This document shows, one piece after another, positions 18,532 through 26,566 of a stretch of 30,131 nt of DNA (position 1 is its first letter; each line of letters starts with the position of its first letter). This DNA comes from a virus (Duplodnaviria; Heunggongvirae; Uroviricota; Caudoviricetes): the IMG/VR virus record IMGVR_UViG_2923292180_000002, one strand, 5' to 3'. The notes under the pieces are model-generated. The model was given only the letters and a program-made list of their open reading frames with translations, was not told the origin of the DNA and ran no database searches. Both the position numbers and the translations under genes were made by a program.

Positions 18532-20304
18532 ATGACCATCACCACAGACACCACTCTTTTACACGACCCGCGTCGTCAGGCGGCGCTGCTGTACTGGCAG
18601 GGATTTTCCGTGCCGCAGATTGCCGCCATGTTGCAGATGAAACGCCCGACGGTGCAGAGCTGGAAACAGCGCGACGGCTGGGACAGCGTTGCCCCCATCA
18701 GCCGTGTCGAAATGAGTCTGGAAGCGCGGCTGACCCAGCTCATCATCAAACCGCAGAAAACCGGCGGTGACTTCAAGGAAATTGACCTGCTCGGACGCCA
18801 GATTGAACGACTGGCACGGGTAAACCGTTACAGTCAGACCGGCAACGAGGCAGACCTTAATCCGAACGTCGCTAACCGCAACAAAGGCGGGCGTCGCAAA
18901 CCGAAAAAGAATTTTTTCAGTGACGAGGCCATCGAAAAGCTGGAGCAGATTTTCTTTGAGCAGTCTTTCGAATATCAGTTGCACTGGTATCGCGCCGGGC
19001 TTGAGCACCGCATCCGCGATATCCTGAAATCCCGCCAGATTGGCGCGACGTTTTATTTTTCCCGCGAGGCGCTGCTGCGTGCCCTGAAAACCGGTCATAA
19101 CCAGATTTTTCTGTCGGCCAGTAAAACGCAGGCGTATGTGTTCCGCGAATACATCATCGCCTTTGCCCGTCTGGTTGACGTTGACCTGACCGGTGACCCG
19201 ATTGTCCTGGGCAATAACGGCGCAAAACTGATTTTTCTCGGCACCAACTCCAACACCGCGCAGAGCCATAACGGCGACCTGTACGTCGACGAGATTTTCT
19301 GGATCCCGAATTTTCAGGTACTGCGTAAGGTGGCATCAGGTATGGCCTCACAGAGTCACCTGCGCTCGACCTATTTCTCCACCCCGTCCACGCTGGCGCA
19401 CGACGCCTACCCGTTCTGGTCAGGTGAACTGTTCAACCGGGGACGCGCCAGCGCCGCCGAACGCGTGGAAATCGACGTCAGTCATAACGCCCTTGCCGGT
19501 GGGCTTCTCTGTGCGGACGGCCAGTGGCGGCAGATTGTCACCATTGAGGACGCCCTGAAAGGTGGCTGCACGCTGTTCGACATTGAGCAGCTCAAACGTG
19601 AAAACAGCGCCGACGATTTTAAAAACCTGTTCATGTGTGAATTTGTTGACGACAAGGCGTCGGTGTTTCCGTTCGAGGAGCTGCAACGCTGCATGGTCGA
19701 CACGCTGGAAGAATGGGAAGACTATGCGCCATTTGCCGCCAATCCGTTCGGCTCCCGCCCGGTATGGATTGGTTACGACCCGTCACACCGTGGCGACAGC
19801 GCCGGATGCGTGGTGCTGGCACCGCCGGTGGTGGCCGGTGGCAAATTCAGAATACTTGAGCGTCACCAGTGGAAAGGCATGGACTTTGCCACCCAGGCGG
19901 AATCCATCTGCAAACTCACCGAAAAATACAACGTCGAATACATCGGTATTGATGCCACCGGCCTCGGTGTCGGCGTGTTCCAGCTCGTGCGCTCGTTCTA
20001 TCCCGCCGCGCGCGATATCCGCTACACACCGGAAATGAAAACCGCAATGGTGCTCAAGGCAAAAGACGTTATCCGCCGTGGCTGTCTGGAATACGACGTC
20101 AGCGCCACCGACATCACCAGCTCGTTTATGGCTATCCGCAAGACCATGACCAGCAGCGGGCGCAGCGCCACCTATGAGGCCAGCCGCAGCGAGGAAGCCA
20201 GCCACGCCGACCTCGCCTGGGCGACCATGCACGCCCTGTTAAATGAGCCACTCACCGCCGGTATCAGCACCCCGCTGACATCCACCATTCTGGAGTTTTA
20301 CTGA
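18532..20304 (+). CDS. P: Terminase ATPase (large) subunit P
   Basis: Start at MTITTDTTLLHDPRRQAALLYWQGFSVPQIAAMLQ gives 590 aa (P2 gpP length); stop overlaps the Q start. Confidence 0.88.
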   Translation: MTITTDTTLLHDPRRQAALLYWQGFSVPQIAAMLQMKRPTVQSWKQRDGWDSVAPISRVEMSLEARLTQLIIKPQKTGGDFKEIDLLGRQIERLARVNRYSQTGNEADLNPNVANRNKGGRRKPKKNFFSDEAIEKLEQIFFEQSFEYQLHWYRAGLEHRIRDILKSRQIGATFYFSREALLRALKTGHNQIFLSASKTQAYVFREYIIAFARLVDVDLTGDPIVLGNNGAKLIFLGTNSNTAQSHNGDLYVDEIFWIPNFQVLRKVASGMASQSHLRSTYFSTPSTLAHDAYPFWSGELFNRGRASAAERVEIDVSHNALAGGLLCADGQWRQIVTIEDALKGGCTLFDIEQLKRENSADDFKNLFMCEFVDDKASVFPFEELQRCMVDTLEEWEDYAPFAANPFGSRPVWIGYDPSHRGDSAGCVVLAPPVVAGGKFRILERHQWKGMDFATQAESICKLTEKYNVEYIGIDATGLGVGVFQLVRSFYPAARDIRYTPEMKTAMVLKAKDVIRRGCLEYDVSATDITSSFMAIRKTMTSSGRSATYEASRSEEASHADLAWATMHALLNEPLTAGISTPLTSTILEFY

Positions 20305-21338
20305 TGAGCAAGAAAAAAGGGAAAACACCGCAACCTGCGGCAAAAAAAATGACCGCCAGCGCCCCGAAAATGGAGGCATTCACCTTTGGTGAGCCGGTGC
20401 CGGTACTCGACCGCCGTGACATTCTGGATTACGTCGAATGCATCAGTAACGGCAGATGGTATGAGCCACCGGTCAGCTTTACCGGTCTGGCAAAAAGCCT
20501 GCGTGCTGCCGTGCATCACAGCTCCCCGATTTACGTCAAACGCAATATTCTGGCCTCGACATTTATCCCGCATCCGTGGCTTTCCCAGCAGGATTTCAGC
20601 CGCTTTGTGCTGGATTTTCTGGTGTTCGGCAATGCGTTTCTGGAAAAGCGTTACAGCACCACCGGCAAGGTCATCAGACTGGAAACCTCACCGGCAAAAT
20701 ATACCCGCCGTGGCGTGGAGGAGGATGTTTACTGGTGGGTGCCTTCCTTCAACGAGCCGACAGCCTTCGCACCTGGCTCCGTGTTTCATCTGCTGGAGCC
20801 GGATATTAATCAGGAGCTGTACGGCCTGCCGGAATATCTCAGCGCCCTTAACTCTGCCTGGCTGAATGAGTCAGCCACGCTGTTCCGCCGCAAGTATTAC
20901 GAAAACGGCGCTCATGCCGGATACATCATGTACGTTACCGATGCCGTGCAGGATCGCAACGATATCGAAATGCTTCGCGAAAACATGGTGAAGTCGAAAG
21001 GCCGCAACAACTTTAAAAACCTGTTTCTCTATGCCCCGCAGGGGAAAGCCGACGGCATTAAAATTATCCCGCTCAGTGAAGTGGCGACGAAGGACGATTT
21101 TTTTAATATCAAAAAAGCCAGCGCCGCTGACCTGCTGGACGCACACCGCATCCCCTTTCAGTTGATGGGCGGCAAGCCGGAGAACGTCGGGTCACTGGGA
21201 GATATTGAGAAAGTGGCAAAGGTCTTTGTCCGCAATGAACTTATCCCGTTACAGGACAGGATTCGGGAAATAAACGGCTGGCTCGGTCAGGAGGTCATCC
21301 GCTTTAAAAACTACTCACTGGACACTGACAACGGCTGA
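20304..21338 (+). CDS. Q: Portal vertex protein Q
   Basis: 344-aa ORF, P2 gpQ size, immediately upstream of cos. Confidence 0.9.
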   Translation: MSKKKGKTPQPAAKKMTASAPKMEAFTFGEPVPVLDRRDILDYVECISNGRWYEPPVSFTGLAKSLRAAVHHSSPIYVKRNILASTFIPHPWLSQQDFSRFVLDFLVFGNAFLEKRYSTTGKVIRLETSPAKYTRRGVEEDVYWWVPSFNEPTAFAPGSVFHLLEPDINQELYGLPEYLSALNSAWLNESATLFRRKYYENGAHAGYIMYVTDAVQDRNDIEMLRENMVKSKGRNNFKNLFLYAPQGKADGIKIIPLSEVATKDDFFNIKKASAADLLDAHRIPFQLMGGKPENVGSLGDIEKVAKVFVRNELIPLQDRIREINGWLGQEVIRFKNYSLDTDNG

Positions 21339-21507: not shown

Positions 21508-21526
21508 GTGCTTTCCCCGCCTCGCC
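21508..21526. other. cos: cos site (19-nt cohesive end sequence)
   Basis: gtgctttccccgcctcgcc is the exact reverse complement of GGCGAGGCGGGGAAAGCAC, the P2 cohesive end as I remember it, at the expected position next to Q. Confidence 0.8.
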
Positions 21527-21682
21527 CGCCCGCTTAATGGGGCGGTTTTAATGCGGGTGCATAACCACTTCTTACCCACATCAATTCTGGTCAAGCCAAG
21601 CAGTACAGCTTATGATTTCAAGATGCAAACTCATGCAGCAATGTTAAATTCTGCATCCATCGGTTTGAAAATGTGATCCGTT

Positions 21683-22837
21683 TTACGAATTCAAACTCAA
21701 CTCTGTTTGACTCTTTTGAACATTAATAGTTTTACCAGTAAGGACATCCAAAACCCCTGCAGCAACAGCCTGCGCCAATTTACAAGGCACAGCATTCCCT
21801 ATCTGACGCCAAATTGACGAATTTTTCCCCACAAAGACATAATTACTCGGGAATGTTTGAATCAAAAGAGCCTCATCTATCGTTAGTCGACGTAAACGAC
21901 TAGGTACATCGTGCATATCTTTTGGCTCACCACCATTCATTAGATGATTATGATAAGTCTCAACATAACTTGTTGAGCCATCATAAAGGTGTTCTTCATC
22001 AATAATTGGTGTCCTATTCCCCCCCATAGAAGCAGCTATAGTTGAAGCATACCCATTCGGGTTAATTGGTCTTCCCTGCCCGTTAAACATCATTCCCGCG
22101 TAAGGTGACTTCCGTAATACTGGCTTAGCAGCATTTGTAATCCTTGCATTACAGACTCTTGAATTGTTTGGATTACCCGCTCGCCCTAAAGGCCGAATAA
22201 TCTCACCAACTGTTGGCGAAAGATATTGGTATTTTTTTATCGCCGCCTCAACTCGTTTCACATCATTTTCGGAACGAAACCCTATAAAAAACATACGTTC
22301 CCTATTCTGAGGAACGCCAAAATCTTTAGAATTCAGCACCAGCAAGGCTGAACGATAGCCTGACTTTTCAGCCATCTTAAACAGTTCACACCTAACTGGT
22401 TCAAATTTGGACAACTGTGCTAAAGCCTTAACATTCTCCATAACAAAGCATTCTGGTTGAATTATATCCACCGCCCGCATGAATGACATAACCAGCTTAC
22501 TACGTGGATCATGAGCGTCCATTTTCCCTGCCACAGAAAATCCTTGGCATGGAGGCCCACCAAAAACACAACCTATATTTTTCAGCCCAGACAATTCACT
22601 TAGCATCTCATCAATATCACCACAAAAAACAGGTGATTCATGATTAAGCTTAAATGTATCACATGCATCCTTATCTATATCATTGGCCCAAACTGTTCGG
22701 AACCCGGCATTAGAGAAACCGACATCCATCCCTCCTGCCCCAGTAAATAAGCTCACAGCTGAAATTTTGTTCACTTCTTTAGCACCAATTATTCGATTTT
22801 GGAATAAAACCAATGATAGGTAAGGATCGACACACAA
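21683..22837 (-). CDS. DNA (cytosine-5)-methyltransferase
   Basis: 384-aa ORF with C5-MTase motifs in order: FTGAGGMDVGF (I), GGPPCQGFS (IV, catalytic PC), ENV (VI), QNRERMFFIG (VIII), a variable target-recognition region, and GNAVP (X). The annotated start is a TTG; an in-frame GTG 15 codons downstream is an alternative. Region is AT-rich compared with the phage backbone. Confidence 0.85.
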   Translation of the reverse strand: MCVDPYLSLVLFQNRIIGAKEVNKISAVSLFTGAGGMDVGFSNAGFRTVWANDIDKDACDTFKLNHESPVFCGDIDEMLSELSGLKNIGCVFGGPPCQGFSVAGKMDAHDPRSKLVMSFMRAVDIIQPECFVMENVKALAQLSKFEPVRCELFKMAEKSGYRSALLVLNSKDFGVPQNRERMFFIGFRSENDVKRVEAAIKKYQYLSPTVGEIIRPLGRAGNPNNSRVCNARITNAAKPVLRKSPYAGMMFNGQGRPINPNGYASTIAASMGGNRTPIIDEEHLYDGSTSYVETYHNHLMNGGEPKDMHDVPSRLRRLTIDEALLIQTFPSNYVFVGKNSSIWRQIGNAVPCKLAQAVAAGVLDVLTGKTINVQKSQTELSLNS

Positions 22838-22857
22838 TCAATCACCTTCTAAACCAC

Positions 22858-23127
22858 ATGGCAAAACGACAACCAACTATACATGATCATAGATACAGGT
22901 GCCTAGTCCAGCTTCTCACCAAACTACGCAAAGAAGCTTCTCTTTCGCAGTCAGAATTGGCCATTTTTCTAGGATTATCACAATCAGATATATCTAAAAT
23001 CGAAAGCTTTGAAAGGCGATTAGATGCTTTAGAACTATTTGAATTATTAGAGGTGGTTGCAAGCCGATTAGGTCTACCAATGGATATCTTACTAAAGGAC
23101 ACCTATGAAAGTATTAGTAAATCATGA
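22858..23127 (+). CDS. HTH (XRE-family) regulator, putative R-M controller (C) protein
   Basis: Helix-turn-helix LSQSELAIFLGLSQSDISKIE. Divergent from the methyltransferase and overlapping the start of the downstream nuclease-like gene by 23 nt, the classic C-R arrangement. Start could instead be the upstream ATG at 22813. Confidence 0.6.
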   Translation: MAKRQPTIHDHRYRCLVQLLTKLRKEASLSQSELAIFLGLSQSDISKIESFERRLDALELFELLEVVASRLGLPMDILLKDTYESISKS

Positions 23128-24160
23128 GCAAGCCTATAATGTAATTATAAATGCAATCAACGATGCAAAAAAATTAACTGATTACAAAACAAATAATCAA
23201 TGGGTCTCCATTCAAAATGTAATTTTAGGCACCCACCTTACATACAGATATATACTTATTACTGGTTTACTTGCAAAAGCAACAGACCCTAGAGTAAACC
23301 CTCTGGCTTTACAAGCTAATGCCCCCGTAGACGGAGCCTATGATGCAAGAAGTTTATGTCATTCGGTAATAGTAGGCAAAGTAGAAGGCCCATTTTTAGA
23401 GGGTAAGTTAGGCGCATCAAATGAGCCATTTCTAAATAAACCAGCTCGTTACATGCTCCACTCCTCTGATAACCCTGTGCGCAGAGGAAATGATAAGGTT
23501 TTACAACAACTTTCAATTGATATATTACATGCAGCAACAACCCAAACCTTAGCTTATGAAATGCTTGTTATTGCATTATATTTTACCCTACAGCGAACCA
23601 ATAGAGTTATAACGCCGAACTCAATTAATTTTGATTTCCATAAGATTATTTATAATATTATATCTCATCCTTGTGATGGAGAAACATGCGCGATTGCTGC
23701 CGCAATTTCGTTACATTTATTAGGTGAACAAAGAGGATGGATAATAAAAGCACATCCCGTCAATCAGGCCGGTAGCTCCTCAAAAGAGATACTGGACATA
23801 GATGTATATCATGATGATATAGTTTTCCTTTCTATAGAAGTGAAAGACAAACCATTCAATTATCAAGATGTTAATCACGCCGTTTCAAAAGCATCTGCAT
23901 CCGGGATTTCAAAAGTTATCTTCCTTAAAGGGCCAAGAGCAACAAACTTAGATATTGATGAGTCTCTTGCGATTGAGAACGCTGCGACAAAAGGTGTTTC
24001 ACTAAGCTTTAGTGACGTCATGACATTCACAACAACATGTTATGCGTTATCGCCACTATTAAGTAATGACAGAATAATAGATTTCATAAATAACACTTTA
24101 AAAGACATCAGAGCTAAAGATAGCACTATAGAATACATACAATCCATATTTAAAAATTAA
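23105..24160 (+). CDS. Putative restriction endonuclease / PD-(D/E)xK-like nuclease (uncharacterised family)
   Basis: 351-aa ORF, strongly AT-rich, with a candidate PD-(D/E)xK motif in ILDIDVYHDDIVFLSIEVKDK (D...E-V-K). Linked to the C-like gene and the divergent C5-MTase. No family recognised by eye. Confidence 0.5.
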   Translation: MKVLVNHEQAYNVIINAINDAKKLTDYKTNNQWVSIQNVILGTHLTYRYILITGLLAKATDPRVNPLALQANAPVDGAYDARSLCHSVIVGKVEGPFLEGKLGASNEPFLNKPARYMLHSSDNPVRRGNDKVLQQLSIDILHAATTQTLAYEMLVIALYFTLQRTNRVITPNSINFDFHKIIYNIISHPCDGETCAIAAAISLHLLGEQRGWIIKAHPVNQAGSSSKEILDIDVYHDDIVFLSIEVKDKPFNYQDVNHAVSKASASGISKVIFLKGPRATNLDIDESLAIENAATKGVSLSFSDVMTFTTTCYALSPLLSNDRIIDFINNTLKDIRAKDSTIEYIQSIFKN

Positions 24161-24167
24161 TACTCCC

Positions 24168-24202
24168 GGGACAATATAGTTCACAACTACGTTGTCCCTT
24201 TT
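24168..24202 (+). terminator. Possible terminator after the nuclease-like gene
   Basis: gggacaa...ttgtccc stem (loop of about 16 nt) followed by TTTT, just after the stop at 24160. The long loop makes this weaker than the Q terminator. Confidence 0.35.
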
Positions 24203-24253
24203 AAAACAGTCAAGCAATTGCATTATATTAATTATTTACTTTTTATCACAATC

Positions 24254-26566
24254 TCATAATTCATACGCTCTCCAATCACATATAACAGGATAACTGAAGC
24301 TTCTCCCGTCGTAATTTACAGTTGCCCCACGCGCCAGCGCCTCAAGCTCCCATCGCTGCGGCCTGATACCGTTCTGAGCAAGGTCAACGCGGATACGGGT
24401 AATTTGCATTCGTTCCGACCGGGTCAGTCTGGCCGATGGCGCTATTTCATGCGGTTTTAACGGGCTTCCGCTTCTTTGCTGACGGTTTGGTGTTCTCAGG
24501 TCGTGTTTTAATGCGCCCCTGAGCGCCCTCACGACCTCCTGGTCATTCCATTCGATAACACCGTCATCAACCAGATTAAGCACTGCGGCGGCGTGCTCAG
24601 AAGGTGTGGGAGCCGGTAACGAAGCATCACTACCGGTGAGCTTTCCACAGTTATTGACAGGACTCCGAGGCGCGGCGATGCCGCTTTTTAAAGTCAAAGG
24701 CTGAACGACCGGAACTTTCGGCACAATGCGCCAGTCCGTCGTTCTGGTGATATGAATATGACGCGCGCCGAGATGCGGCGCGTAAATGCCGACCACTCTC
24801 TCGACCTCTTCCTCGTACTCGTTAACGTCATCCGACGGGCTACGGGCGACCCTGACAGTCTGACAATCGCGCGGGACATTTGCCCCACCCTGCGCGCTGA
24901 TATACAGCGCAAAATCGCCACTGTCTGCGGCAGCGCGTGCAGCCTCGACGCGTTCGTCAAACTCATCAGCAATGCTGACGCCGCGAGGCAATTTGCGTAG
25001 TTCACGGTAAGCCCCCATTGTCGGCAGGCCAACCGTTTTAAATTGCGGAATGCGCCACGTTGACGCCCATGCGGTAACAGCCGCGGCAGTGTCTTTCAGC
25101 GGCCTGCCGGTATCGTTATCGAGCTGACCATCCAGTGCATAGCCGTCGATGTTTTTTGAAATGTATTTCGCGATATATCCCGCAGCACCGCCCCGGTTAA
25201 GGTGTTTTGCCTGAAAACGGTTTCGCGCAGCTCCTCTTTCGTCTCCATCCTCTTTGAGCGCGTAGCGACGCATGATTTCGATAATCTGGTTACGCTGGCG
25301 TGGATTACAAAAAAGCATCATATGCCAGTGCGGCGTTCCGTCGTGGTGTGGCTCGACGACACGCAAACCGTAGACCTGTAAATCATTATCCTTGAATGCC
25401 GTGCGCATCAGGCTCCAGATGCGGCAGAGATAACGCTGCGCATCCTTTGGATTAAATGCCTCATCGTTCCAGCCGTGATTAAGCTGAACGGTTTTACTTT
25501 CGCCTTTTCTGACCTGACGTGTCGGGTGATACTTTGACGGCGCGGTCAGCGTGATAAACATCCCCACATCACCCTCTGCGGCGGCGTAACGCTCAATACC
25601 GGCAATGGTGTTCATCAGCTCCATCCGGCGAATTTCAGGATTAGAAATACTGCCCATCACCTTACTGATAAGGTCGATACGCTCGCCGGTTTCCCTGTTT
25701 TCAAGGTCACACGATTTAAGAAATTCCAGATTTGCCTGGCGGCGCGCACGCACATCACGAATGGCGTGTTTACTGGCATAAGGAGAACGGTCTTTATTGA
25801 CCTCCCCGACAGCTATCAGTAACGCTTCATGCCAGCGCATACGCTGGCCTTTAAGCTGATGAGTCCACCACTCATCGTTAAACAGACGGGCAATGGCAGA
25901 ATATGCCTGCCTCGTGGTCATCTGCCCTTTACGGTATTTTTTCCAGTAGAGAGGGGAAATATTGAAAGCACGTGCAGCGCCAGCAACATGACCATACAGG
26001 TGAGCCTGCGCCTCATCCGTAAACAGTGATTCTTTTTCGCCATGCGCATCCACCCAGGCATCGCAGAGTTCCTCATACATCATGAAAAGCTGCGATGAGA
26101 TACGGGCGGCAAACTTTTTCAGCTCCTTGTCATTCATTCCTGGCAGGCGCGCATAGTGGTCACGCTCTGCCAGAAACAGCAACGACGCGTCGGTGTTCAT
26201 TTCATGGCGCTGATTCACACGCTCAATACGCGGCCATAAACGACGCTGAAAAGTGGATGTGAGGAAATAAAACCCGTGTACCGGACTTTTATTGCGCCGG
26301 ATGTAGTCATAGCGTGAAGTAAACAGCGAGCGCAAAAAGTAAGGCAGGCGGTTAATCGTGGATAAAACACCTTGCACCTGACGCATCTCGTCACGTGTAA
26401 GAGGTCTTTCTCGCCCGACGGCCTCGCGTGGCGCGTTCCATGCATAAGCACCGGTAAACGTCTCACCGGTGCCTGCGGCAAATGCTGACGGAGGGACAAA
26501 ACGCCCGGAGGCTTTAACGGCCATATGAGCCAAAAGCCTCTGAACAACGCTTGCTGAGTTGCTCAA
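24254..26566 (-). CDS. A: Replication initiation protein A (rolling-circle replication endonuclease)
   Basis: 770-aa ORF in the P2 gene A position at the end of the early operon, with a two-tyrosine motif region GYIAKYISKNIDGYALDG. The real start may be the internal ATG at 26524 (MAVKAS...). Confidence 0.85.
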   Translation of the reverse strand: MSNSASVVQRLLAHMAVKASGRFVPPSAFAAGTGETFTGAYAWNAPREAVGRERPLTRDEMRQVQGVLSTINRLPYFLRSLFTSRYDYIRRNKSPVHGFYFLTSTFQRRLWPRIERVNQRHEMNTDASLLFLAERDHYARLPGMNDKELKKFAARISSQLFMMYEELCDAWVDAHGEKESLFTDEAQAHLYGHVAGAARAFNISPLYWKKYRKGQMTTRQAYSAIARLFNDEWWTHQLKGQRMRWHEALLIAVGEVNKDRSPYASKHAIRDVRARRQANLEFLKSCDLENRETGERIDLISKVMGSISNPEIRRMELMNTIAGIERYAAAEGDVGMFITLTAPSKYHPTRQVRKGESKTVQLNHGWNDEAFNPKDAQRYLCRIWSLMRTAFKDNDLQVYGLRVVEPHHDGTPHWHMMLFCNPRQRNQIIEIMRRYALKEDGDERGAARNRFQAKHLNRGGAAGYIAKYISKNIDGYALDGQLDNDTGRPLKDTAAAVTAWASTWRIPQFKTVGLPTMGAYRELRKLPRGVSIADEFDERVEAARAAADSGDFALYISAQGGANVPRDCQTVRVARSPSDDVNEYEEEVERVVGIYAPHLGARHIHITRTTDWRIVPKVPVVQPLTLKSGIAAPRSPVNNCGKLTGSDASLPAPTPSEHAAAVLNLVDDGVIEWNDQEVVRALRGALKHDLRTPNRQQRSGSPLKPHEIAPSARLTRSERMQITRIRVDLAQNGIRPQRWELEALARGATVNYDGRSFSYPVICDWRAYEL

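Follow-up and report, generated by a model that had tools for sequence, protein, structure and literature searches.

The window analysed here, a 30,131-nucleotide stretch of a P2-like prophage, contains an AT-rich cargo block of ~2.7 kb located between cos and the 3' end of gene A. The block (21555..24284), delimited by the break in P2 homology and by base composition, takes the place of P2 orf91-tin-old, and a comparison with P2 found no counterpart of these three genes anywhere in the window. Its GC content is 0.383 over 21568..24284 as compared to 0.537 in the rest of the window, with local values of 0.35-0.43 across 21600-24400 and 0.52-0.59 in the flanks. On the left side of the block P2 homology stops at 21554, and the match to other P2-like phages runs up to ~21567; on the right, P2 homology restarts at 24285, which corresponds to P2 base 30273 within the 3' end of gene A. 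The 19-nt cohesive-end sequence of cos lies at 21508..21526, where P2 bases 1-19 (annotated cosL) align to 21526..21508 and the P2 right end (33593..33547) aligns to 21508..21554. Conserved P2 genes flank the block on both sides: gene Q, encoding the portal (20304..21338, plus strand), shares 99.4% amino acid identity with P2 gpQ over 343 residues, and gene A, encoding the replication endonuclease (24254..26566, minus strand), shares 96.4% identity with P2 gpA residues 1-754, its final few codons falling within the replaced segment. The gpA-gpQ interval of P2 is a documented antiviral defence hotspot (Rousset et al. 2022, PMC9122126), and the locus has the same arrangement, with variable cargo next to cos and between A and Q genes that are 96-99% identical to those of P2 at the amino acid level. 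An earlier sequence-only reading had described a low-GC block between cos and gene A at the P2 tin/old hotspot, and both its composition and its placement were borne out.

Three open frames occupy the block just where they had first been read, at 21683..22837 (minus strand, 384 aa), 22813..23127 (plus strand, 104 aa) and 23105..24160 (plus strand, 351 aa). The first encodes a complete C5-cytosine DNA methyltransferase, as had been proposed: it matches Pfam DNA_methylase PF00145 with 225.7 bits (1.3e-66, profile positions 2-320 of 324), TIGR00675 with 200 bits (cut-off 100.65) and PADLOC MTase_II at 1.9e-79, and its translation displays motifs I (FTGAGG), IV (PPCQ), VI (ENV), VIII (QNRER) and X (GNAV). 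The position of this frame was read correctly, but its 384-aa start probably was not. Although the open frame reaches TTG 22837, the methylase gene (ecoT38IM; 21683..22774, minus strand) most likely begins at GTG 22774, because the resulting 363-aa protein matches UniProt Q83VT0 (Tax=Peduovirus P2) exactly and because this start puts GGG at codons 12 and 15, the positions given for these codons in the M.EcoT38I rare-codon table (PMC6456624, Table 3). A candidate methylase promoter, TTGATT-17 nt-TATCAT (22813..22841, minus strand), was picked out in a promoter scan by a 9-of-12 match to consensus and would fire leftwards into the predicted operator described below.

The 351-aa frame (ecoT38IR; 23105..24160, plus strand) had been thought to encode an uncharacterised protein of no recognisable family, either an unusual restriction endonuclease or some other effector belonging to a defence system linked to methylation. 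The protein, R, is in fact identical at 351/351 residues to PDB entries 7E8R/7EDB, "EcoT38I restriction endonuclease", and its identity to this crystallised restriction enzyme excludes a different effector. It matches Pfam RE_SacI (PF09566) with 258 bits (cut-off 19.3; 1.9e-76) over profile positions 4-276 of 276 and PADLOC REase_II with 834 bits over its full length, and RefSeq annotates it as 'restriction endonuclease, SacI family'; NCBIfam has no model for it. The guess that it belongs to the PD-(D/E)xK nucleases fared better. Residues D231, D233, E245 and K247 of the segment 'DIDVY...IEVK' are invariant in 41 aligned family members, R included, as is E193, which gives the pattern E193...D233...E245-x-K247. 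In a structure model of R the first four of these residues lie on two adjacent strands, 232-236 and 239-247, and the model has the alpha-beta-beta-beta-alpha-beta core fold of the PD-(D/E)xK superfamily. Assignment of R to this superfamily is thus supported by the model, with the catalytic role of the conserved residues predicted. A Shine-Dalgarno sequence for R, AAGGA, lies inside the 3' end of the preceding gene, and a terminator-like hairpin followed by TTTT is located downstream (24168..24198, plus strand; RNA fold -15.7 kcal/mol, z = -4.65 vs shuffles).

The remaining gene, ecoT38IC, is co-oriented with ecoT38IR directly upstream of it and encodes a controller helix-turn-helix protein, C. 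Residues 6-89 of C are 100% identical to PDB 2EF8, and profile searches returned Pfam HTH_3 (1.8e-6) and, weakly, PADLOC Control_protein (2e-4 and 4e-3). The divergence of this gene from the methylase and its 23-nt overlap with the 351-aa gene (23105..23127) had both been read correctly. What changed was the start: the open frame runs for 104 aa from ATG 22813, but the RefSeq call of an 89-aa form and the N-termini of homologues agree on ATG 22858 (22858..23127, plus strand) as the most likely start. Neither candidate is preceded by a Shine-Dalgarno sequence, which leaves some uncertainty over the start of C and over the mRNA 5' end.

Comparison of related loci revealed a predicted C-box operator in the spacer between the methylase and C genes, the palindrome TATTC-GATTTTG-GAATA at 22790..22806, which a simple inverted-repeat search of the spacer had missed. 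Allowing up to 3 mismatches, the pattern TATGCGATTTTGGCATA was found as one copy in the M-C spacer of 24/25 related loci with a C gene and in 0/54 related loci without one (406 kb scanned on both strands); it also occurs just once in the whole window. The two arms co-vary, with G:C replaced by T:A in both, in the window and at one related locus (L003). A second conserved element, TAAGGATC (22821..22828, plus strand), sits at a conserved offset from the box, and the related loci carry an element T[AC]A[AG][GT]ATC at a constant offset from their own. It forms part of a candidate weak C/R promoter (22799..22828, plus strand), in which TTGGAA, inside the C-box, would serve as the -35 and AAGGAT, 17 nt on, as the -10; this promoter and that of the methylase are assigned by consensus match only. 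Kita, Kawakami and Tanaka reportedly described a dual regulatory role for C in 2003. The palindrome at 22790-22806 is predicted to be the C operator, a detail newly found here, and the cross-phylum comparison thereby supplies a testable operator for C.EcoT38I.

Taken together, we conclude with a probability of roughly 0.93 that the block carries the EcoT38I type II restriction-modification (R-M) system in intact form, comprising M, C and a SacI-family R, as accessory cargo of a P2-like prophage at the gpA-gpQ hotspot. The earlier proposal of a C-protein-controlled type II system is confirmed by sequence, with R corresponding to 7E8R, M to Q83VT0 and C to 2EF8. For the last two we infer the EcoT38I identity from the P2 taxon and from the rare codons, whose published positions in EcoT38I R and M (PMC6456624) fit this sequence. 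The finding is real and is not new: the EcoT38I system, the PDB entries and the hotspot are all already known. EcoT38I was placed on P2 prophages in the title of Kita, Kawakami and Tanaka (J Bacteriol 2003;185:2296), the hotspot was catalogued in 2022, and the supposed uncharacterised nuclease is a crystallised enzyme, which removes a false lead.

The 3-kb block that holds the cassette is present at ≥99% identity in 20/5426 complete E. coli genomes, adjoining the P2 replication endonuclease gene in each, and the exact R protein occurs on 986 contigs. Searches of phage and plasmid collections found neither the cassette nor a close R homologue in sequenced coliphage records or enterobacterial plasmids. 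SacI-family loci in other genomes span many phyla, and 70/79 have a methylase homologue adjacent to R at E <= 1e-110. The divergent M / C-R layout seen here is shared by 25/79 of these loci, and the 54/79 without a C gene have M and R in tandem or divergent. At one locus, L042, the methylase copy is truncated (1e-38).

The prophage carrying the cassette is apparently complete, judging from its gene content. A comparison with P2 found the structural, lysis and replication genes all full length, and the essential P2 genes are all present at 95-100% amino acid identity save for H and G, the tail-fibre genes, which are divergent. The P2 genes that are absent are accessory only (orf30, fun(Z), orf91, tin and old), and the int/C/cox module differs from that of P2. 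Location of the cassette on a seemingly complete P2 prophage fits the P2-mediated transfer between strains proposed in the 2003 title.

EcoT38I is taken here to recognise GRGCYC, with R cutting behind the Y (GRGCY^C) and M placing m5C within the site. Neither the prophage (30 kb) nor P2 (33.6 kb) contains this sequence. Among 96 comparable symmetric patterns, GRGCYC is the only one to score zero in either genome, against a median of 24.5-27. Two sites occur in Wphi, both within accessory regions, and the sister genera have 17 (186), 12 (PsP3) and 4 (Fels-2); lambda has 7, and the host chromosome carries ~5-8 per 50 kb. The assumed specificity is indirectly consistent with both SacI-family membership and this unique absence from the carrier phage. 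An absence specific to cassette carriers was rejected, as P2 also has no sites. Depletion throughout E. coli accounts for the absence in part: the chromosomal rate predicts ~4 sites, with a probability of zero sites of ~0.02, and 186 and PsP3 have 12-17. A backbone of Peduovirus (the P2 genus) purged specifically of GRGCYC is a possibility that we hold tentatively, at somewhat under even odds. If such a purge arose through a long shared history with enzymes of the EcoT38I type, P2 would serve as a vehicle free of sites, uncut when carrying the system and when entering or leaving EcoT38I-positive cells, which, if true, would explain why EcoT38I is tolerated as P2 cargo. With the presumed target wholly absent from its backbone, P2 would offer a clean example of a phage invisible to its own R-M cargo.

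The same distribution of sites bears on what maintains the cassette. P2 prophages could retain EcoT38I chiefly for its action as an addiction module, with post-segregational killing stabilising the prophage and anti-phage defence secondary. As the prophage has no GRGCYC sites and the host has many, the host, rather than the phage, would suffer from a loss of methylation, and type II systems, which could stabilise lysogeny, are over-represented among prophage R-M systems (Oliveira et al., PMC4176335). However, the hotspot is dominated by systems validated as anti-phage (PMC9122126), competing coliphages such as lambda and 186 do carry the site, and addiction and defence are not mutually exclusive, so we regard addiction as the main role as a rather unlikely account, if one to be taken seriously. 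It is far less probable that the cassette, intact in sequence, is a silent or non-functional relic in its host. The methylase is annotated as two CDSs in one related genome (H8, FORC_082), a hint that copies can decay, but here each of the three proteins is identical to a deposited, crystallised or characterised version, the cassette has its C-box, its terminator and a Shine-Dalgarno sequence for R, and the number of contigs with the exact R protein is as expected of a sequence that is being maintained. Scarcely credible is a trio that is not R-M at all, such as an orphan methylase beside an unrelated regulator and effector in a methylation-linked abortive-infection module: nothing was found in its favour, and it is refuted by the identity of R to 7E8R and by the adjacency of methylase and R homologues across many phyla, with PADLOC assigning R to REase_II and M to MTase_II.

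For a functional EcoT38I system, a working model can be drawn from the anatomy of the locus, from the comparison of related loci and from established knowledge of C-controlled systems. On entry into a new cell C would be absent, and M would be transcribed from a promoter reading through the C-box and would methylate the host's target sites. The divergent C/R operon would be driven by a weak promoter whose -35 lies within the C-box, and C would therefore accumulate slowly. Past a threshold, a C dimer would bind TATTC-N7-GAATA, both switching on C/R transcription and blocking transcription of M. R would then be translated from its own Shine-Dalgarno sequence in the 3' end of the C gene and would cut unmethylated incoming DNA at the target, presumably GRGCY^C. 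Were the prophage to be lost, the host chromosome would be open to cutting.

The closest known system is EcoT38I of E. coli TH38. R, M and the crystallised part of C have identical sequences in the two, M and R are spaced 330 nt apart in both, and the genes follow one order within a P2 setting that has cos/Q on one side and A on the other. Defective P2 prophages are named in the 2003 title, whereas the prophage here is apparently complete. As a member of the SacI family (PF09566), R shows a full-length profile match, the invariant motif residues and the homologous C5 methylase partner, but the family as a whole has a C gene at just ~1/3 of its loci. SacI itself cleaves GAGCT^C, whereas EcoT38I has the degenerate target GRGCY^C. 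The layout is that of the C-controlled type II systems PvuII, EcoRV, AhdI, Esp1396I and BclI, with a small helix-turn-helix gene just upstream of R and overlapping it, a divergent M and a conserved palindromic operator in the M-C spacer. Similarity of C to the structurally studied C proteins is weak and marginal (C.BclI, E = 0.015; C.AhdI, E = 0.046), and the operator, TAT(G/T)C-GATTTTG-G(C/A)ATA, differs from the PvuII GACT...AGTC double box. Sorokin et al. (PMC2632904) include C.EcoT38I among the C proteins in REBASE for which a site is predicted. The EcoO109I R-M system of P4-like satellites (PMC9122126) is likewise a type II system with a C protein, carried as cargo at a hotspot next to cos in an element of the P2/P4 system, but its carrier is satellite P4, its enzymes are different and its C-box belongs to another class (Sorokin motif 8). 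Finally, old and tin of P2 lie at this locus too, between A and cos, and likewise exclude other phages, although their proteins and mechanisms are unrelated.

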